64,000 nt of DNA from Escherichia coli (GTDB taxonomy: Bacteria; Pseudomonadota; Gammaproteobacteria; Enterobacterales; Enterobacteriaceae). The DNA lies in assembly GCF_044647545.1 (NCBI RefSeq), contig NZ_CP172818.1; one strand, given 5' to 3'. The position numbers and the translations under genes are program-made. This document shows positions 6,150 through 59,529 of this stretch, in pieces (position 1 is the first letter of the stretch; each line of letters starts with the position of its first letter). The notes beneath the pieces were generated by a model. The model was not told the DNA's origin, did not search any database, and saw nothing but the letters and a program-made list of their open reading frames with translations.

Positions 6150-6725
6150 ATGCCCCTCTTACACCTGCTCCGCCAGAATCCGGTGATTGCTGCCGTTAAA
6201 GATAATGCCAGCCTGCAACTGGCAATCGACTCTGAATGCCAGTTTATTTCCGTGTTGTACGGCAATATCTGCACCATCAGTCATATCGTCAAAAAGATTA
6301 AAAGTGCCGGGAAATATGCCTTTATTCATGTCGATTTGCTGGAAGGCGCATCGAACAAAGAAGTGGTGATTCAGTTTCTGAAACTGGTGACCGAGGCGGA
6401 CGGCATTATCAGCACGAAAGCATCGATGCTGAAAGCAGCAAGAGCGGAAGGTTTTTTCTGTATTCATCGCCTGTTTATTGTTGATTCGATTTCGTTTCAC
6501 AACATTGATAAGCAAGTTGCGCAATCGAATCCGGATTGTATTGAGATCCTGCCTGGCTGTATGCCCAAAGTGCTGGGCTGGGTGACGGAGAAAATCCGCC
6601 AACCGCTGATTGCTGGCGGGCTGGTGTGCGATGAAGAAGATGCGCGTAATGCGATTAACGCAGGTGTCGTGGCGCTTTCCACCACGAATACCGGGGTCTG
6701 GACGCTAGCGAAAAAATTGCTTTGA
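6150..6725 (+). CDS. ygcP: GlpP-like glycerol-3-phosphate-responsive antiterminator family protein
   Basis: 191-aa ORF; protein recognised as YgcP (GlpP family). Confidence 0.8.
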   Translation: MPLLHLLRQNPVIAAVKDNASLQLAIDSECQFISVLYGNICTISHIVKKIKSAGKYAFIHVDLLEGASNKEVVIQFLKLVTEADGIISTKASMLKAARAEGFFCIHRLFIVDSISFHNIDKQVAQSNPDCIEILPGCMPKVLGWVTEKIRQPLIAGGLVCDEEDARNAINAGVVALSTTNTGVWTLAKKLL

Positions 6726-15964: not shown

Positions 15965-16367
15965 TGGTTCATCCCCGCTGGCGCGGGGAACACGTCTTTT
16001 TGACCGGCCGGTAAATCGTCTGCCTGCGGTTTATCCCCGCTGGCGCGGGGAACACAAACCATTCTCGCAATCAAGGACTATTCCTAGACGGTTTATCCCC
16101 GCTGGCGCGGGGAACACGGTCGCAGGGAATACAAAGCCGTGCATCCTGCTCGGTTTATCCCCGCTGGCGCGGGGAACACTGGCTCTGCAACAGCAGCACT
16201 ATGACCCCGTCGGTTTATCCCCGCTGGCGCGGGGAACACGAAAAGCTTATGATCGTTAATGCCGCAAACACCGGTTTATCCCCGCTGGCGCGGGGAACAC
16301 ATTACACCTATGTGCGAGCGCCCGGTTTTTGCCGCTAGCGGTTTATCCCCGCTGGCGCGGGGAACAC
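15965..16367 (-). CRISPR. Type I-E CRISPR array, 7 repeats and 6 spacers, no adjacent cas genes
   Basis: Repeat cggtttatccccgctggcgcggggaacac (29 bp) at 16027, 16089, 16151, 16211, 16272 and 16339, plus a degenerate terminal copy at about 15965; spacers 31-38 bp; orientation inferred from the AT-rich leader on the high-coordinate side. Confidence 0.95.
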
Positions 16368-16600
16368 TCTAAACATAACCTATTATTAATTAATGATTTT
16401 TTAAGCCAGTCACAATCTACCAACTTTATAGTATCACACAAACAACACATCCATTATGTTAAAGAGCACTTAATCCATTGATTAAAAAGGTAAATATTTA
16501 AAATAACTCTATACAAACTAAAATCTACCAAACTTTACCGCAATAATTTTCACTCCAGCGAAAAATTAACGCCACAGAATTTGTAGAGAATGATAATGAT
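16368..16600 (-). promoter_or_regulatory. Putative CRISPR leader (AT-rich, promoter-containing)
   Basis: AT-rich ORF-free stretch directly abutting the best-conserved repeat; the degenerate repeat lies at the opposite end of the array. Confidence 0.6.
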
Positions 16601-16706
16601 TAGTTCAGGATGGGCAAGATGGATGAGTTTTCAGAGGCGACAAACAATATAAATGAGTAGAAGTCTTTACAGGTTCCACCCATTTATAACGCTTATAAAT
16701 GTTTAA

Positions 16707-17378
16707 TCAGGCAATATTTAGATATTTATGTGTTTGCATCGACAAACGCCAATTACGCGCAATGCAGGTTTCAATGCACAAACGTGTGGCATCATCCTTT
16801 TGGCTAATCGGCTGCAGTGCAATGACTCGCGGTTTATCATCGGTCAGCGTTGCCAGTAGTTCATCCAGTGCTTCAATATCACGTACGCGCCCCACTGGAT
16901 GCTTGATTTCGTTGGCTCGCTCCAGTGCCTGTGACAACACTTCATAGCCGCCGCGCATGTTCAACTTTGGTGATACGGTAACCCAGGTATTCGGTGTGCA
17001 GCGTACCTCATGAGTACCACTGGTTTCGATCTGGCAGCTAAAACCGTTCTTTTCGAGCAGATCAGTCAGTGGCAGCAAATCATGAATGCAAGGCTCACCA
17101 CCCGTAATCACCACATGCCGTGCGGTGTATCCCTGGCGACCAATGACAGCCAGCAAATCTTCACTGCTCGCAGCCCCCCACTTATCACTCTCTTTGGTCT
17201 TCGCCAGAATGCTGAAAAGGGAGACTTCCCGATCCTCAAGCTTTTCCCAGGTGTGTTTGGTGTCGCACCAGGCACAGCCAACCGGGCATCCCTGTAAACG
17301 AATAAAAATGGCGGGGACGCCGGTAAAGTAACCCTCACCTTGCAGGGTCTGGAACATCTCGTTAATCGGGTACTGCAT
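16707..17378 (-). CDS. queE: 7-carboxy-7-deazaguanine synthase (radical SAM)
   Basis: 223-aa ORF; CxxxCxxC-like radical-SAM motif (QGCPVGCAWCDTKH) near the N-terminus. Confidence 0.9.
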   Translation of the reverse strand: MQYPINEMFQTLQGEGYFTGVPAIFIRLQGCPVGCAWCDTKHTWEKLEDREVSLFSILAKTKESDKWGAASSEDLLAVIGRQGYTARHVVITGGEPCIHDLLPLTDLLEKNGFSCQIETSGTHEVRCTPNTWVTVSPKLNMRGGYEVLSQALERANEIKHPVGRVRDIEALDELLATLTDDKPRVIALQPISQKDDATRLCIETCIARNWRLSMQTHKYLNIA

Positions 17379-27017: not shown

Positions 27018-29774
27018 ATGACCAACTACAGCCTGCGCGCACGCATGATGATTCTGATCCTGGCACCGACCGTCCTTATTGGTTTATTGCTGAGTATCTT
27101 TTTCGTCGTGCATCGCTATAACGACTTGCAGCGTCAACTGGAAGATGCCGGTGCCAGCATTATTGAGCCGCTTGCAGTTTCTACTGAATATGGCATGAGT
27201 CTGCAAAATCGCGAATCTATCGGTCAGTTAATAAGCGTACTGCATCGTCGCCATTCCGATATTGTTCGCGCGATTTCGGTTTATGATGAAAATAACCGAC
27301 TCTTTGTCACCTCCAATTTTCATCTTGATCCCTCATCAATGCAGCTCGGCAGCAACGTGCCGTTTCCTCGCCAGCTCACTGTCACTCGTGACGGCGATAT
27401 TATGATCCTCCGCACGCCGATTATTTCTGAGAGTTACTCCCCCGACGAATCGCCCAGTAGCGATGCCAAAAATAGTCAAAATATGTTGGGATATATTGCG
27501 CTGGAGCTGGATCTTAAATCGGTTCGCTTGCAGCAATATAAAGAGATCTTTATTTCCAGCGTGATGATGCTGTTTTGTATCGGTATTGCGCTTATTTTTG
27601 GCTGGCGCTTAATGCGCGATGTAACCGGTCCGATTCGCAACATGGTGAATACCGTCGACCGCATCCGTCGCGGGCAACTCGACAGCCGGGTGGAAGGATT
27701 TATGCTTGGTGAGCTGGATATGCTGAAAAACGGTATCAACTCGATGGCAATGTCGCTGGCGGCTTATCACGAAGAGATGCAACACAATATCGACCAGGCG
27801 ACGTCCGATCTGCGTGAGACGCTGGAGCAAATGGAGATTCAGAACGTTGAGTTGGATCTGGCGAAAAAGCGCGCCCAGGAAGCGGCGCGTATTAAATCCG
27901 AGTTTCTGGCAAATATGTCACACGAGCTGCGTACACCACTGAATGGTGTTATTGGCTTTACCCGCCTGACGCTGAAAACAGAATTAACACCAACGCAGCG
28001 CGATCACCTGAATACGATTGAACGTTCGGCAAATAATTTGCTGGCAATTATTAATGATGTTCTCGACTTCTCGAAACTGGAAGCAGGTAAGCTGATTCTG
28101 GAAAGTATTCCATTCCCACTACGCAGCACGCTGGATGAAGTCGTTACCCTGCTGGCACATTCTTCTCACGATAAAGGGCTGGAACTGACGCTCAATATTA
28201 AAAGCGACGTGCCTGATAACGTGATCGGCGACCCACTACGATTACAGCAAATCATCACTAACCTGGTGGGGAATGCAATTAAATTCACCGAGAATGGCAA
28301 CATTGATATTCTGGTAGAAAAACGTGCGCTGAGTAATACCAAAGTGCAAATTGAAGTGCAGATTCGGGATACCGGCATTGGTATTCCTGAACGCGATCAA
28401 TCGCGCTTATTCCAGGCCTTCAGACAGGCTGATGCCAGTATTTCCCGCCGTCATGGTGGCACCGGGCTGGGGCTGGTGATTACACAAAAACTGGTTAATG
28501 AAATGGGCGGCGATATTTCGTTCCATAGCCAGCCGAATCGCGGTTCAACTTTCTGGTTCCACATTAATCTCGATCTGAACCCGAACATTATTATCGAAGG
28601 GCCATCCACCCAGTGCCTCGCCGGCAAGCGCCTGGCCTATGTCGAACCAAACTCCGCAGCAGCGCAATGCACGCTGGATATTTTAAGTGAAACGCCGCTG
28701 GAAGTGGTTTATAGCCCAACGTTCTCTGCGCTGCCTCCCGCGCATTACGACATGATGTTGTTAGGCATCGCGGTGACCTTCCGCGAGCCGCTAACAATGC
28801 AACATGAGCGATTAGCGAAAGCAGTATCGATGACCGATTTTCTGATGCTGGCACTTCCTTGCCATGCACAAGTCAATGCTGAAAAACTTAAGCAAGATGG
28901 TATCGGCGCGTGTCTGCTGAAACCATTAACACCTACGCGCCTGTTACCTGCCCTGACGGAATTTTGTCATCACAAACAAAACACGCTTTTGCCTGTAACC
29001 GATGAAAGTAAGCTGGCAATGACAGTCATGGCGGTTGATGACAACCCCGCTAACCTGAAACTTATCGGCGCATTGCTGGAAGATATGGTGCAACATGTGG
29101 AACTTTGCGATAGCGGGCATCAGGCGGTTGAACGGGCGAAACAGATGCCGTTCGATTTGATCTTAATGGATATTCAAATGCCGGACATGGACGGCATTCG
29201 GGCCTGCGAACTCATCCACCAGCTCCCCCATCAGCAACAAACGCCGGTTATCGCGGTAACGGCGCATGCAATGGCCGGGCAAAAAGAGAAGCTGCTTGGC
29301 GCAGGGATGAGCGATTATCTGGCGAAACCGATTGAAGAAGAGCGATTGCATAATTTGTTGTTGCGCTATAAGCCTGGCAGCGGTATTTCCTCTCGCGTCG
29401 TGACGCCCGAAGTCAACGAAATTGTGGTGAACCCGAATGCGACCCTCGACTGGCAACTGGCACTACGCCAGGCAGCAGGAAAAACCGATTTAGCGCGCGA
29501 TATGCTGCAAATGTTACTCGATTTCCTGCCTGAAGTTCGCAACAAAGTTGAGGAACAGCTGGTTGGAGAAAACCCGGAAGGCCTGGTTGATTTGATTCAT
29601 AAACTGCATGGCAGTTGCGGCTATAGCGGTGTGCCGCGTATGAAGAATCTCTGCCAACTGATCGAACAACAGCTACGTAGCGGTACTAAAGAAGAAGATT
29701 TGGAGCCGGAGCTGCTGGAACTGTTGGACGAGATGGATAATGTAGCGCGCGAAGCCAGCAAAATTCTCGGGTAA
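27018..29774 (+). CDS. barA: hybrid sensor histidine kinase BarA
   Basis: 918-aa ORF; two N-terminal TM segments, HAMP, H-box (SHELRTPLN), receiver domain, C-terminal HPt. Confidence 0.96.
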
Positions 29775-30004: not shown

Positions 30005-31345
30005 TTAACGCACCATGCACGGGCGCTTGTTATCAAACGTCCAGCCAGGAATCAGGTACTGCATTCCCATCGCATCGTCACGCGCGCCAAGCCCGTGTTT
30101 CTGATACAGCTCGTGGGCTTTCATCACCTGATCCATATCGATTTCTACGCCCAATCCTGGTTTTTGCGGCACCTGTACCAGCCCGCCTTTGATCTCAAAC
30201 GGTTCTTTGGTCAGACGCTGATTGCCTTCCTGCCAGATCCAGTGCGTATCAATAGCAGTAATTTTACCCGGTGCAGCAGCGGCTACATGGGTAAACATCG
30301 CCAGGGAAATATCGAAGTGGTTGTTAGAGTGTGAACCCCAGGTCAGGCCAAATTCATGGCACATTTGCGCCACACGTACCGAACCTTGCATCGTCCAGAA
30401 ATGCGGATCCGCCAGCGGGATATCAACGGATTGCAGGGAGAGCGTATGGCCCATCTGCCGCCAGTCGGTGGCGATCATATTGGTTGCGGTCGGCAGGCCA
30501 GTCGCGCGACGGAACTCTGCCATCACTTCACGCCCGGAGAAACCTTGCTCCGCACCACACGGATCTTCTGCATAAGCCAGCGAACCTTTCAGGTATTTAC
30601 CAATTTTAATCGCTTCGTTCAGCGACCAGGCACCGTTAGGATCGAGGGTAATACGCGCCTGTGGGAAGCGTTGCGCCAGTGCCACAATAGATTCTGCTTC
30701 TTCTTCCCCGGCCAGTACACCGCCCTTCAGTTTGAAATCGTTGAAGCCATATTTTTCATATGCCGCTTCCGCCAGGCGCACCACCGCATCCGGCGTCATC
30801 GCTTCTTCGTGACGCAGGCGATACCAGTCACATTGATCATCCGGCTGGCTTTGATACGGCAGCGGTGTGGCTTTGCGATTACCGACGAAGAACAGATAAC
30901 CGAGCATTTCGACTTCGCTACGCTGTTGACCATCGCCCAGCAGCGATGCCACGTTAACCCCCAGATGCTGCCCCAGCAGATCCAGCATTGCCGCTTCTAT
31001 CCCGGTAACCACATGAATAGTGGTCCGCAGGTCAAATGTCTGCAAACCGCGCCCGCCGGCATCACGATCGGCAAATGTATTACGCACCAGCGTCAGAACG
31101 TTTTTGTATTCACCCAGCGTTTTACCCACCACCAGCGGAATCGCATCTTCCAGCGTTTTACGGATTTTCTCGCCGCCGGGAATTTCCCCTACCCCAGTGT
31201 GACCAGAATTATCTTTGATAATCACAATATTACGCGTGAAGAACGGTGCGTGTGCACCACTCAGATTCATCAGCATACTGTCATGGCCCGCCACCGGGAT
31301 GACCTGCATTTCAGTAACAACAGGCGTCGTAAATTGAGAACTCAT
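30005..31345 (-). CDS. gudD: glucarate dehydratase
   Basis: ORF track 30005-31369; known start [24 protein letters not shown] (446 aa); enolase-superfamily. Confidence 0.92.
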
Positions 31346-31365
31346 ATTTATGTCCTTTTTCAAAA

Positions 31366-32706
31366 TCAATGACGGCCGAAAACGGGACGTTTACGGTCAA
31401 AGGTCCAGCCGGGGATCAGGTACTGCATCGGGCCCGCGTCGTTACGCGCACCGCCAGGCAGACGTTTATAGGCCTCATGCGCCTTTTGTACCTGCTCCCA
31501 GTCCAGTTCCACGCCCAGACCGGGCGCATCAGGAACGGCAATTTTTCCATTTTTAATCTCCAGCGGATTTTTGGTCAGGCGACAATCGCCCTCCTGCCAA
31601 ATCCAGTGGGTATCGATAGCGGTAGGATTACCCGGTGCCGCCGCGCCCACATGGGTAAACATCGCCAGAGAGATATCAAAGTGGTTATTGGAATGGCAGC
31701 CCCAGGTCAGCCCCCAGTCGTCGCAAAGCTGCGCTACGCGGACTGCACCGGAAAGCGTCCAGAAGTGCGGGTCGGCAAGTGGAATATCTACCGCATTGAG
31801 CATCACCGCATGGCCCATTTCGCGCCAGTTGGTGGCGATCATATTAGTCGCGACGGGCAAGCCGGTCGCCCGCCGAAATTCCGCCATCACTTCACGTCCG
31901 GAGAAACCCTGTTCTGCGCCACACGGATCTTCGGCATAGGTGAGAACATCATTCAGCCCTTTGCACAGAGAAATAGCTTCATCAAGCAGCCATGCTCCGT
32001 TGGGATCAACGGTAATCCGCGCATCCGGGAAGCGTTTCTTCAATGCACGAACAGTGTCGATTTCTTGCTCGCCAGGTAACACTCCGCCCTTAAGTTTGAA
32101 ATCTTTAAAGCCATAGCGATCCTGTGAAGCTTCCGCCAGACGCACAACGGCTTCGCTGTTCATCGCTTTCTGATGCCGCAATTGATACCACTCATGGTTG
32201 CCCGGAGTATTTTCCAGATAAGGAAGATCGGTTTTGGTCCGATCACCGATATAAAACAGATAACCGAGGACGGTAATAGCATCGCGTTGCTTGCCTGGCC
32301 CTAACAGTTCGCAGACCGGAACATTCAGCGCCTGACCTAGCAGGTCAAGCAAGGCGGCTTCCAGCGCCGCCACGGCATTAACGCGCAATTCAAAAGTCCA
32401 GGCACCTTTGCCGAAGGTATCAAAATCGGCTGCCTGATTACCTTTATGCACCTGCTGAACCACTTTATTCAGTCGTGCGATCTCCTGGCCCAACACCATC
32501 GGAATAGCCTCGACCAGTGTTTGATAAATCACCTCTCCGCCCGGCGCTTCACCAATGCCGGTATGCCCGGCGTTATCGGTGAGTACCACAATATTGCGGG
32601 TGAAATATGCGTTATGTGCACCACCAATATTAAGCAACATGCTGTCATGTCCGGCGACCGGAATGACTTTCATATCAGTAATAACAGGACTGGATTGTGT
32701 CGTCAT
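31366..32706 (-). CDS. gudX: glucarate dehydratase-related protein (paralog of GudD)
   Basis: 446-aa ORF beginning [23 protein letters not shown]; colinear with gudD over its whole length. Confidence 0.92.
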
Positions 32707-32707
32707 C

Positions 32708-34060
32708 TTATTGCCCCGCGACAGGTTTCAGCTCAATACGCTTGATATCGCCCACCAGCACCAGGTAGCTGAGTACCGCGATTAAGGCATGAACACCAAC
32801 ATAAATCAGCGCCCCATTAAAGGAGCCAGTCGTGCCAACGATATAACCAATTGCGATTGGCGTGACGATGCCAGAAATGTTACCGAACATGTTGAACAGG
32901 CCACCGGAAAGACCGCTGATCTCTTTTGGCGCGGTATCTGCCATTACTGCCCAACCCAGCGCCCCGATGCCCTTACCGAAGAAGGCCAGCGCCATAAAGC
33001 CGATGATCATCCACTCAACGTTGACGTAGTTGCAGAACACCATCACCATCGACAGCAACATGCCCATTACGATCGGTGTTTTACGCGCAATGTTCAGCGA
33101 TCCCGTGCGGCGCATCAGCCAGTCGGAAATAATCCCACCCAGCACACCGCCGATAAAACCGCAAACCGCCGGAACGGAAGCCACAAAGCCCGCTTTCAGA
33201 ATCGACATCCCGCGTGCCTGCACCAGATAAACCGGGAACCAGGTAATAAAGAAGTAAGTCAGGGCGTTGATACAGTACTGACCGATATAAACGCCGATCA
33301 TCATCCGTGACCCGAGCAGCTGTTTGATCTGCCCCCACTTCACGCTGAACGGTACTTTAACTTTGGTGTTTTGCTGATCCATATTGATCAGCGCGCCACC
33401 CGCCGCGATGTACTCCAGCTCTTTCTGATTTACACCCGGATGTTGATTTGGCTCGTGGATGACTTTCAACCAGATAAAGCTGATGACAATGCCCAGACCG
33501 CCCATAAAGAAGAAGACGTGTGACCAGCCCACTTCATGCGTCAGCCAGCCCATAATCGGCGCGAAGATCACCGTTGCGAAGTATTGAGCGGAGTTAAAAA
33601 TCGACACCGCCGTTCCCCTTTCCTGCGCCGGAAACCAGGCCGCTACAATGCGACTGTTACCGGGGAAAGATGGCGCTTCAGCAAGCCCGACCAGGAAGCG
33701 CAGCGTAAACAGGGCAACGATAATGCCGAATCCACTAAAAATATCGACGAAGCCTTGCAGCAAGGTAAACATCGACCAGATAAAGATCGACCAGAAGTAG
33801 ACGCGTTTTGAACCAAAACGATCCAGCAACCAACCACCAGGGATCTGCCCGATAACATAAGCCCATGAGAAAGCAGAGAACACATAGCCCATTCCCACAG
33901 GATCAAGGCCGATATCTTTGGCCATTTCCGAACCGGCGATAGAGAGCGTAGCGCGGTCGCCGTAGTTGAAGGATGTGACGATAAACAACATCACCACTAT
34001 CCAGTAACGAGCATTCGTGCGTTTTTCCACACTGCTCGCAGCCTGACTTAAAGAACTCAT
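32708..34060 (-). CDS. gudP: glucarate/galactarate MFS transporter
   Basis: 450-aa hydrophobic ORF; first gene of the gudPXD operon. Confidence 0.9.
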
Positions 34061-34961: not shown

Positions 34962-35744
34962 TTAGGAACTTATCTCTCCATCCTGACCCGATGGCGCACT
35001 GAACTCAACCCTTTCATTTTCAGGAAGCAGACCCCGCCAGCCAAATTGTGATAACGCCTGCATCCAGGTGTCGTCCAGGCCCGCGTGAATAGTCAGCGGC
35101 TCGCCAGTAAAAGGATGCGTCAATGACAACTGACTGGCATGCAGCATTAACCGCTGAAGGCCAAAATGTTCAGCACCGCTGCGATTCTGGCGTAAATCAC
35201 CATGTTTGCTGTCGCCAATAATCGGGTGGCGCAAATGGGCAAGATGGCGACGGAGCTGGTGCTTACGTCCGGTTTTCGGCTCCAGTTCCACCAGGCCGTA
35301 GCGCGTGGTCGGGTAACGTCCGGTCGCTACCGGCATTTCTACGGTCGCCAGACCGCGATAATGCGTCACTGCTGGCTGCGGGCCTTTATCTTCGCGGGCA
35401 AATTTATCAGCGATTTTGTCCAGTTCTTCCACCAGTGGATAATCCAGCACCGCTTCTTCCATCAACCAGCCGCGCACAATCGCATGGTAACGTTTCTGGA
35501 TTTGGTGCTGTTCAAACTGTTGTGCCAGCAGCCGTCCGGCCTCGCTGGATAATCCCATCAACAACACACCAGAAGTGGGTCGGTCCAGACGATGAGCAGT
35601 AAACACATGCTGGCCTATCTGGTCACGCACGGTTTGCATGACCACTACTTTCTCGTCGCGATCCAGCCAGCTGCGGTGAACCAGCCAGCCGGAGGGTTTA
35701 TTTACCGCAACCAGCCATTCATCCTGATAGAGTATTTCCAGCAT
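34962..35744 (-). CDS. truC: tRNA pseudouridine(65) synthase
   Basis: 260-aa ORF; RluA-family motif [12 protein letters not shown]. Confidence 0.9.
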
Positions 35745-36073
35745 TAGCTCGCATCATCCGCAAAAAGAGCATCCAGTTTTTCCAGCTCAGCCAGAATAAG
35801 CGCGCGTTGCGGGTGGTCCGTCGCCAGCGCCATTTCATAATAGGGTGCAACGGCAAAAGCGCCCGGTAACGGCTGGTTGTTATCTAACAAATCATGCATT
35901 CGCGGGATCAGCACCCACTGCAACCACTCCAGTGGTTCCATGGTGTCCATAAAGAACGGTTGGGTACTGTTAAATTGATGCGGCTGGGGTTTATCGTTGC
36001 GCCAGTGCTGATGTTCACGCAGTAACGCTTCAAGCGCCTGCAACTGGAGACGAACGCGGTCATGAGTGGTCAT
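35744..36073 (-). CDS. yqcC: DUF446-family protein
   Basis: 109-aa ORF whose stop overlaps the truC start. Confidence 0.8.
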   Translation of the reverse strand: MTTHDRVRLQLQALEALLREHQHWRNDKPQPHQFNSTQPFFMDTMEPLEWLQWVLIPRMHDLLDNNQPLPGAFAVAPYYEMALATDHPQRALILAELEKLDALFADDAS

Positions 36074-36118
36074 AAAGCAACCTCAATAAGAAAAACTGCC
36101 GCGAAGGATAGCAGGAAT

Positions 36119-36483
36119 AAAAAAAGGGAGCACTGTATTCACAGTGCTCCCGGTTCGTTTCGCAGCATTCCAGCTACTTTTGTTGCTCCCTGCTCATCCT
36201 TGACAACTTTTCCTCTGGCCTTGCGGCCAATCGTTCATCCTGAACTATTGCTTCCTGCTCACACCACCCCGATGTGATACTTCATCCTGAAGTGTCCCTG
36301 GCCTTCCTGACCCACCGAATCATCCTGACCGGTTCTCATTCTCCATCCTGGAGGTGTCCTTTAACGCGTCCTGCGTCATCCTCTTCGCTTCATCCAGAAG
36401 CCTTTCCCTGAAACACCATCCTGGTGTGTCCTTCAGAAGTGTCATCATCCTGATGTTCACTTCGTTGTCTGACTCCCTGTCGA
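36119..36483 (-). ncRNA. csrB: CsrB small RNA (CsrA-sequestering)
   Basis: On the + strand, at least 6 perfect CATCCTG (CAGGAUG in the transcript) plus several variant GGA motifs within about 360 nt; terminator gggagcactgtgaatacagtgctccc + U-run at the 3' end (36119-36151). Confidence 0.9.
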
Positions 36484-36694
36484 CGAAGATAGAATCGTCT
36501 TTTTCGCGAAGTCTTACAAGGCGCTTACAGACAATGCCTTAAGGAAAATTTCATATGAAAGTTAAGAATTGACAAGCAATATATTGATTTTAAATGAAAA
36601 TAACGATTCTTATCTTTTTAAGTATTCGCTTATTTCCTGGCGATCTCCTACAGAGTCTGTAAGAGATCTCTCACAACAAGATGGGGTATTTGGA

Positions 36695-37240
36695 TTACAG
36701 AAGAGGCTTAAGTTGATTAAGGAATTCCGCAAGATTTGAGGCTAAATGCGTCCGTTTGCGTGTTCCCAGCGTCTCTTTGCACACTTCACCGGAGAGATTA
36801 CACACCGAGATGACCTCTAACTCTTCTTCCAGCGTCGCGATAAATAGCGTGGGCGGCAGTTTTAGCCTTTTCTGAGTCACCAGATGACCAATCAGATTTT
36901 CCTGCACCCGACGGAAGTCGTCTTCACTCCAGGTTTGCAGCAATGTCAGTTTGATATCGCCAAACTGCGCGTGCATATCCCCGGCAAACTGAGTCGTATA
37001 AAAGGTATGAATTGTGGGTTGTATCACAATATCAAAAGCACGTTCAACCGCGTTTACATTTTGTTCCCCGGTAAACGGCTGGGGTTGCCAGTATACGGCG
37101 TCTTCGGTGGTTGAAATAATGCACGGTGAAGGAACACCGTACAGTTCCTCACTCAACGGCCAGCTTTTATGCTCTTCATGCCACGCATCGCAGTAGCGTG
37201 CAGTAAAATCTTTCAGGGCTTGTGCGGTCAAATCGTCCAC
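36695..37240 (-). CDS. syd: SecY-interacting protein Syd
   Basis: 181-aa ORF recognised as Syd. Confidence 0.88.
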
Positions 37241-54704: not shown

Positions 54705-54910
54705 ACTTCCTGAGCCGGAACGAAAAGTTTTATCGGAATGCGTGTTCTGGTGAACTTTTGGCTTACGGTTGTGATGTTGTGTTGTTGTGTTTGCAATTGG
54801 TCTGCGATTCAGACCATGGTAGCAAAGCTACCTTTTTTCACTTCCTGTACATTTACCCTGTCTGTCCATAGTGATTAATGTAGCACCGCCTAATTGCGGT
54901 GCTTTTTTTT
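54705..54910 (+). ncRNA. gcvB: GcvB small RNA
   Basis: acttcctgagccggaacgaaaag...; GU-rich seed gttgtgatgttgtgttgttgtgtttgc; terminator gcaccgcctaattgcggtgc + T8; divergent from gcvA. Confidence 0.92.
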
Positions 54911-59232: not shown

Positions 59233-59309
<77 letters not shown>

Positions 59310-59342
59310 ATTAAAATTTGATGAAGTAAAGCAGTACGGTGA

Positions 59343-59419
<77 letters not shown>

Positions 59420-59452
59420 ATCAAAATTTAATGAAGTAAAGTAGTACGGTGA

Positions 59453-59529
<77 letters not shown>

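Follow-up and report, generated by a model that had tools for sequence, protein, structure and literature searches.

The csrB locus

The window, as we call the whole 64,000-nucleotide stretch of Escherichia coli DNA that was analysed, carries on its minus strand the gene for the small RNA CsrB, with syd as its upstream and yqcC as its downstream neighbour, and on its plus strand the gene for the hybrid sensor kinase BarA (Table 1). An Rfam scan of the whole window places CsrB (RF00018) at 36475-36116 on the minus strand, with the match running from position 1 to position 356 of the 356-position model at 382.9 bits (gathering threshold 71; E = 2.2e-111) and with no flagged non-canonical pairs. 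The annotated csrB of K-12 MG1655 (b4408, an ncRNA at NC_000913.3 2924156-2924524, minus strand) has the same 369-nt length and is identical to the sequence here at 367 of 369 positions (99.5%). Further, syd upstream, yqcC downstream and the +1 context are common to both genes, as are the UvrY inverted repeat, the auxiliary element, the -35/-10 and the terminator. The +1 was set at 36484, where the K-12 annotation of the gene begins (GTCGACAGGG). The flanks are tight, with the start of yqcC 42 bp beyond the csrB 3′ end and the syd stop codon 20 bp from the UvrY box.

Table 1. Features of the csrB locus and of barA, in window coordinates; positions with a minus sign under Remarks are relative to the csrB +1
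Feature	Position	Strand	Remarks
barA, 918-aa hybrid sensor kinase	27018..29774	+	convergent with csrB
yqcC	35744..36073	-	downstream neighbour of csrB; annotation in identical and K-12 loci
csrB gene, 369-nt CsrB sRNA	36116..36484	-	+1 = 36484, 3′ end = 36116; Rfam RF00018 and identity to K-12 b4408
Intrinsic terminator	36116..36151	-	hairpin 36151-36126 and U7 tail; also the Rfam consensus 3′ hairpin
Array of 22 GGA (CsrA-binding type)	36150..36478	-	six perfect CAGGAUG, three CAGGA[A/C]G and 13 other GGA
Putative -10 hexamer GATTCT	36491..36496	-	-12..-7
Putative -35 hexamer TTGTAA	36514..36519	-	-35..-30; 17-bp spacer to -10
IHF consensus match AATCAATATATTG (WATCAANNNNTTR), perfect	36577..36589	-	-105..-93
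Auxiliary UvrY-like element TGTAGGAGA	36644..36652	-	-168..-160; conserved as TGTRRGAGATCGCC in orthologues
UvrY~P site, 18-nt inverted repeat TGTGAGAGATCTCTTACA	36658..36675	.	-191..-174, centre -183/-182; also found as palindrome
syd	36695..37240	-	upstream neighbour of csrB; NF003439, 286.7 bits, and locus annotation

Judged by its sequence, the segment 36116-36484 (minus strand) is the chromosomal csrB of E. coli, the orthologue of K-12 b4408 and a member of the CsrB/RsmB family, and it has all those defining features of the family that can be tested in sequence. With the rest of the family in RF00018 (Salmonella csrB, and rsmB of Pectobacterium/Erwinia) it shares hairpins with GGA in their loops and a terminal terminator, and there is no difference at the level of the family; about 35 enterobacterial csrB orthologues share its architecture as well as the UvrY box upstream. 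None of this carries much weight as a discovery. The csrB gene, its GGA hairpins, its UvrY/IHF-dependent promoter and BarA are already known components of the textbook Csr system, and the parts found here are well studied. A modest practical point is that an earlier reading of the raw sequence alone (hereafter the sequence-only reading) could name both the sRNA gene and its regulatory box correctly. The covariance-model check that it had proposed yields the full-length CsrB match above, and the annotated K-12 gene agrees with its identification. Its span of 36119-36483 was nearly right, with the ends off by 3 nt at the 3′ side and 1 nt at the 5′ side, and the strand, of which it said nothing, is minus.

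The assignment of barA had been exact to the base. Residues 1-917 of its product align with positions 1-917 of the 920-position NCBIfam equivalog NF008318 at 1623.9 bits (cutoff 890), and in a genome that is identical across the csrB locus the RefSeq annotation has barA at this very place.

barA and csrB as neighbours

The barA stop codon and the csrB 3′ end are 6,341 bp apart, which bears out the earlier estimate of about 6 kb, and the genes in between are gudD-gudX-gudP followed by yqcA-truC-yqcC. Does such closeness have a functional meaning, through selected linkage or an effect in cis, or is it no more than gene order handed down? To this end barA loci with 10-kb flanks were sampled at one genome per species, with csrB being located by nhmmer and Rfam, and a locus was taken as informative where the flank reached far enough to include the csrB position. 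In 33 of 33 informative Enterobacteriaceae loci csrB has yqcC and syd on either side and converges with barA, beyond whose stop it is found at 1.67-8.95 kb. The genera with this arrangement include Escherichia, Citrobacter, Enterobacter, Pseudocitrobacter, Pluralibacter, Kosakonia and Kluyvera, and further Pseudescherichia, Shimwellia, Mangrovibacter, Cedecea, Siccibacter and Superficieibacter. Pantoea stewartii has the same arrangement, at 9.46 kb, which extends the neighbourhood from the sampled Enterobacteriaceae to a single genome of the Erwiniaceae. In five loci from Erwinia, Pantoea and Mixta the 10-kb flank ended at yqcA or yqcC, and csrB may lie just beyond. In the loci of Yersinia, Rahnella, Rouxiella, Edwardsiella and Moritella the same nhmmer and Rfam searches located no csrB in the 10-kb flanks of barA.

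The main determinant of the distance is the presence of the gud operon. The gudP-gudX-gudD operon, at 30005-34060 in the window, is missing in E. albertii (L004), isolate RIT691 (L023), Pluralibacter gergoviae and several others, and in E. albertii and RIT691 csrB is only 1.7 kb from barA.

Those inclined to see function in the proximity can point to its constancy, a convergent pair at 1.67-9.46 kb in every one of the 33 informative Enterobacteriaceae loci and in P. stewartii, and to its persistence through changes in the DNA between the two genes, where the gud operon, among other genes, may be there or missing. Were linkage selected, sensor and main output would be inherited together, for example. 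Yet the block rlmD-barA...yqcA-truC-yqcC-csrB-syd-queF is collinear across these genomes, for which ordinary vertical synteny suffices, and since no csrB came up within 10 kb of barA in the five genera from Yersinia to Moritella, the circuit does not require them to be close. The signal, moreover, runs through UvrY, a diffusible regulator whose gene is absent from the window and from all the barA loci (in a tblastn search of both with K-12 UvrY the only match was the receiver domain of BarA, a weak one at 28.6% identity), and csrC, the second target of UvrY, is unlinked. With the second target unlinked and the signal passing through a diffusible regulator, we see in the proximity of barA and csrB a gene order that Enterobacteriaceae and Erwiniaceae have inherited, and nothing that the function of the circuit demands; a meaning beyond gene order we consider distinctly improbable. 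Titles and abstracts yielded no specific earlier description of barA-csrB synteny, with the caveat that coverage of the literature was incomplete and that this is not proof of novelty.

The GGA array and its presentation

The six perfect CAGGATG motifs, all on the minus strand, are at 36236-42, 36283-89, 36321-27, 36344-50, 36417-23 and 36446-52. The earlier count, of at least six perfect and several imperfect motifs, stands, with the perfect ones being exactly six and the total of GGA given in Table 1. On both strands of the 64-kb window CAGGATG occurs 24 times, against 6.5 ± 2.6 expected from dinucleotide shuffles, and a quarter of these copies sit in csrB, which is 0.6% of the sequence. Of all segments of 369 nt, on whichever strand of the window, csrB has the highest density of GGA (the minus-strand mean is 5.2, sd 2.6).

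It might be objected that a segment so rich in purines (122 G and 114 A among its 369 nt) will be rich in GGA as a by-product of its composition, mononucleotide shuffles alone giving 12.3 ± 2.8, or that it is a short protein-coding gene, five small ORFs of 26-71 aa overlapping csrB, and in neither case an RNA decoy. The 22 observed, however, are 3.5 sd above the segment's own shuffles, of which the sole exceedance among 2,000 was the maximum of 23, and the two strands differ sharply, the RNA strand having 22 and its complement 2. As for the overlapping ORFs, they are short, and three of the five run antisense to csrB. What is seen in the fold and across orthologues, described next, likewise fits RNA structure and not codons, and we give the objection almost no credence.

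The minimum free energy of the segment is -119.9 kcal/mol (z = -4.3 against shuffles), and in that predicted fold 17 of the 22 GGA are fully unpaired and hairpin loops contain nine of the 22. By the partition function a GGA has on average a probability of 0.81 of being unpaired, and other trinucleotides one of 0.41 (Mann-Whitney p = 8e-8). The Rfam consensus has 11 hairpins with a loop GGA, all 11 of which the sequence here forms, and the GGA outside those loops are mostly in linkers between hairpins, with one in the terminator stem and one in a hairpin stem. The sequence-only reading had asked for GGA to be sought in predicted loops, and it is there that many of them fall, 11 by the Rfam consensus. 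Of the two observations that it had named as speaking against csrB, absence of a CsrB match in Rfam and GGA lying outside loops, neither was made when both were looked for.

Comparative support comes from 30 csrB sequences of 29 Enterobacteriaceae genomes folded with RNAalifold. Among the 61 pairs so predicted 25 have at least one compensatory double change, which supports the positions of the loops, and the GGA in the loops vary little or not at all across the 30 sequences, a pattern of RNA structure and not one of codons. Nor does variation in length among orthologues suggest a conserved reading frame, arising as it does from whole hairpin units and small indels. Among genera csrB ranges from 316 to 418 nt with 20-28 GGA, E. 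coli with its 22 GGA being near the low end. Longer forms are found in Pseudocitrobacter (L012 20248-20666, about 410-418 nt) and, at about 386 nt, in Enterobacter ENT03 and Pseudescherichia (L011 15644-16029; L026 20130-20516), where the alignment has an extra GTTTAYGGATGAAC hairpin unit. From these alignments CsrB RNA seems to grow by duplication of single GGA hairpins. One GGA-dense stretch in Edwardsiella (L037:7939-8288, 20 GGA) was considered and set aside, being by Rfam not CsrB and probably coding sequence.

The csrB promoter

The 18-nt inverted repeat TGTGAGAGATCTCTTACA upstream of csrB matches the site footprinted with DNase I by Zere et al. 2015 (PMC4682653) exactly, both in its sequence and in where it lies. 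In that study phosphorylated UvrY protects the repeat, which is also at the centre of the strongest genomic UvrY ChIP-exo peak, that of csrB, with binding in vivo requiring BarA. The same authors report an auxiliary UvrY-like element, TGTAGGAGA, which follows the inverted repeat at a distance of 5 bp downstream, and a need for IHF in optimal csrB activation; they place a putative IHF site between two regions of UvrY crosslinking, and the IHF consensus match of Table 1 is between these too. The sequence-only reading had expected the UvrY box within a ‘150-bp region’ at 36484-36694. That region is actually 211 bp with the +1 as its first base, and while it does enclose the box, the box, at about -183, is outside a literal 150 bp.

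In an alignment of about 35 orthologous csrB upstream regions, TGTRAG-N6-CTYACA is present at about -190 in 30 of 35, in 24 as the identical 18-mer, with diverged flanks. The ATCAA-N4-TTR core of the IHF site is kept in most orthologues, as is CTTGTAAGAC of the -35 region, and GATTCTAT of the -10 region is conserved across the set. Together with the auxiliary element these are conserved islands amid diverged upstream sequence, and it is as such a constellation (inverted repeat, auxiliary half-site, IHF core and -35/-10) that the promoter has been conserved across enterobacterial genera. A strict scan of 36050-36750 for the sigma-70 consensus turned up no promoter; since the csrB hexamers fall below the sigma-70 threshold, the putative -35 and -10 of Table 1 were assigned from position relative to the K-12 +1 and from conservation. 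A weak core promoter, as these hexamers suggest, is as expected of a promoter dependent on an activator.

Additional TGTAAG half-sites, on the minus strand, are at 36513-36518 (-34) and 36524-36529 (-45), and of the 16 copies of TGTAAG in the window three are within the 211-bp upstream region. In the orthologue alignment the -45 copy is confined to Escherichia and Citrobacter, and the -34 copy, which overlaps the -35 hexamer, is conserved in most Enterobacteriaceae. Could the latter be a promoter-proximal UvrY contact behind the downstream ChIP-exo signal, at -56..+25? The idea is weakened both by that overlap and by csrC, whose promoter also shows downstream UvrY crosslinking (PMC4682653), whereas no TGTAAG was found near the -35 of the K-12 csrC promoter. 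A plain conserved -35 explains the data at least as well and we have dropped the half-sites as the cause of the crosslink, a contact there being, quite separately, as much of a long shot as selection having kept barA and csrB linked.

Terminator and alleles

The strong terminator that had been claimed for the 3′ end is there. Its predicted hairpin has an 11-bp stem with seven G-C pairs and a 4-nt loop followed by TTTTTTT, the U7 of the RNA, and the stem is conserved in orthologues with compensatory changes.

Within the gene the window differs from K-12 by two substitutions only, at 36433 (+52) and 36135 (+350). The first, C in K-12 and A here, turns GCAGGAC into GAAGGAC and retains the GGA; AAGGAC is found there in the window and E. 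albertii, and CAGGAC in K-12 and most genera. The second is in the terminator stem, with the G of K-12 giving a G-U wobble and the A of the window an A-U pair. That base is A in 28 of the 30 aligned csrB sequences and G in the two copies of a metagenome-assembled genome considered below. Since A is present in the window and in 27 of the 29 other aligned sequences, the K-12 allele looks to be the derived one.

Upstream, four substitutions relative to K-12 are clustered at 36571-36583 (-100..-88), within or just downstream of the IHF consensus, WATCAANNNNTTR, and neither allele has lost the match to it. A third E. coli, L003, diverges further at -100..-88, and for this reason the AT-rich spacer there is taken to vary within E. 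coli.

csrC and the rest of the clan

E. coli has a second CsrA-sequestering sRNA, CsrC (Rfam RF00084), with the same mechanism and activator as CsrB. The csrC of K-12 is shorter than csrB, 246 nt, and is at the unlinked yihA-yihI locus. Its upstream UvrY site begins with TGTGAGA, as given in PMC4682653, in an inverted repeat weaker than that of csrB, and, unlike csrB, it has no IHF dependence (PMC4682653). Since all members of the CsrB/RsmB clan share GGA-loop hairpins and an upstream box of the UvrY/GacA type (general knowledge; PMC4682653), the segment might be thought to be csrC or an RNA of the RsmX/Y/Z type, but Rfam clan competition retains CsrB with 382.9 bits over the full 356-position model, the 99.5% identity to b4408 and the same flanking genes contradict csrC, and K-12 csrC is elsewhere, of another length and behind a different inverted repeat, which together leave the notion with practically nothing in its favour. 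The segment is accordingly treated as csrB in what follows.

Proposed working of the circuit

According to PMC4682653 and what is generally known of the Csr system, BarA autophosphorylates and hands the phosphoryl group to UvrY. Phosphorylated UvrY together with IHF activates csrB, and CsrB binds many CsrA dimers, thereby relieving the control that CsrA exerts on its mRNA targets. CsrA promotes uvrY expression, and through it csrB transcription, which closes a feedback loop. As general background, the turnover of CsrB depends on CsrD and RNase E.

The overall account, of a minus-strand csrB activated by UvrY and IHF, whose RNA titrates CsrA and whose sensor kinase BarA is encoded 6.3 kb away, is one of which we are as good as certain, and nothing of weight speaks against it. 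Applied to the window it would run as follows. BarA would phosphorylate UvrY, encoded elsewhere in the genome, and UvrY~P would bind the 18-nt inverted repeat centred at -183/-182, with IHF predicted to bind between that repeat and the promoter. The weak activator-dependent promoter would then drive transcription of csrB from the minus strand, and the intrinsic terminator would stop the transcript ahead of yqcC. The 369-nt RNA would be a string of short hairpins with about 20 GGA displayed in loops and in single-stranded linkers; these, as probable high-affinity sites for CsrA dimers, would enable CsrB to titrate CsrA off its mRNA targets. For the binding and sequestration of CsrA dimers by this particular RNA we infer from its near-identity to the experimentally characterised K-12 RNA and from the literature in PMC4682653.

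Occurrence, annotation and variants

An 801-bp query centred on csrB has matches in 5425 of 5426 complete E. coli genomes, with 100% identity in many, syd and yqcC flanking the match in these. For the 369-nt gene by itself the identity is 99% or more in 5176 genomes, and in the remaining 249 it is between 95% and 99%. Only one of the 5,426 is without a csrB match, and two have less than 80% coverage.

Annotation has not kept pace. In all 35 of the 35 E. coli RefSeq records listed, the csrB match is without a feature of its own, the entry being ‘none’ or only syd/yqcC, and among the records compared the ncRNA feature csrB is carried by K-12 MG1655 only. A core regulatory RNA thus appears to go unannotated in RefSeq (PGAP) genomes of E. 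coli, an annotation gap and not an absence.

A natural disruption of csrB is present in E. coli MARGA_3 (L074, NZ_CM170101.1, 1815-3278), where a transposase of the IS3 family is immediately 5′ of a csrB remnant next to yqcC, of which only nt 92-369 align; the MARGA_3 record also has a second place that matches csrB. Plasmid-borne csrB was considered on account of four PLSDB records (NZ_CP141089.1, NZ_CP134663.1, NZ_OL790696.1 and NZ_LN868944.1) and rejected. The records with csrB there are of 4.8-4.9 Mb (E. coli) and 0.73 Mb (Salmonella), and by their size we take them to be mislabelled chromosomal sequence. Such mislabelling may explain the single ‘plasmid’ place of csrB in the E. coli genome set.

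Duplication of the whole gene is seen in the metagenome-assembled genome mentioned above, of an uncultured member of the Enterobacteriaceae (L029), which has two tandem csrB copies at 15983-16343 and 16670-17029, both on the minus strand, between yqcC and syd. With Rfam scores of 251 and 256 bits, the copies share 99% identity over the stretch between about -36 and the 3′ end, and the regions upstream have diverged, each with its own inverted repeat of the UvrY type. Duplication of csrB in Vibrio has been described (PMC6262261).

Other RNAs

The searches that located csrB brought up several other RNAs. In Edwardsiella ictaluri (L037) Rfam finds the rncO leader at 16362-16542 on the minus strand (136 bits), and in E. 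albertii (L004) the sRNA ES036 at 6242-6284 on the plus strand (44.9 bits). The window itself has a full-length GcvB sRNA at 54705-54910 on the plus strand (RF00022, 199 bits against a threshold of 42), presumably adjoining gcvA as expected in E. coli. Also on the plus strand, at 59233-59529, are three tandem tRNA-Met (CAT) genes with 110-bp spacing and equal Rfam scores, which resemble the metZ-metW-metV cluster of initiator tRNAs.
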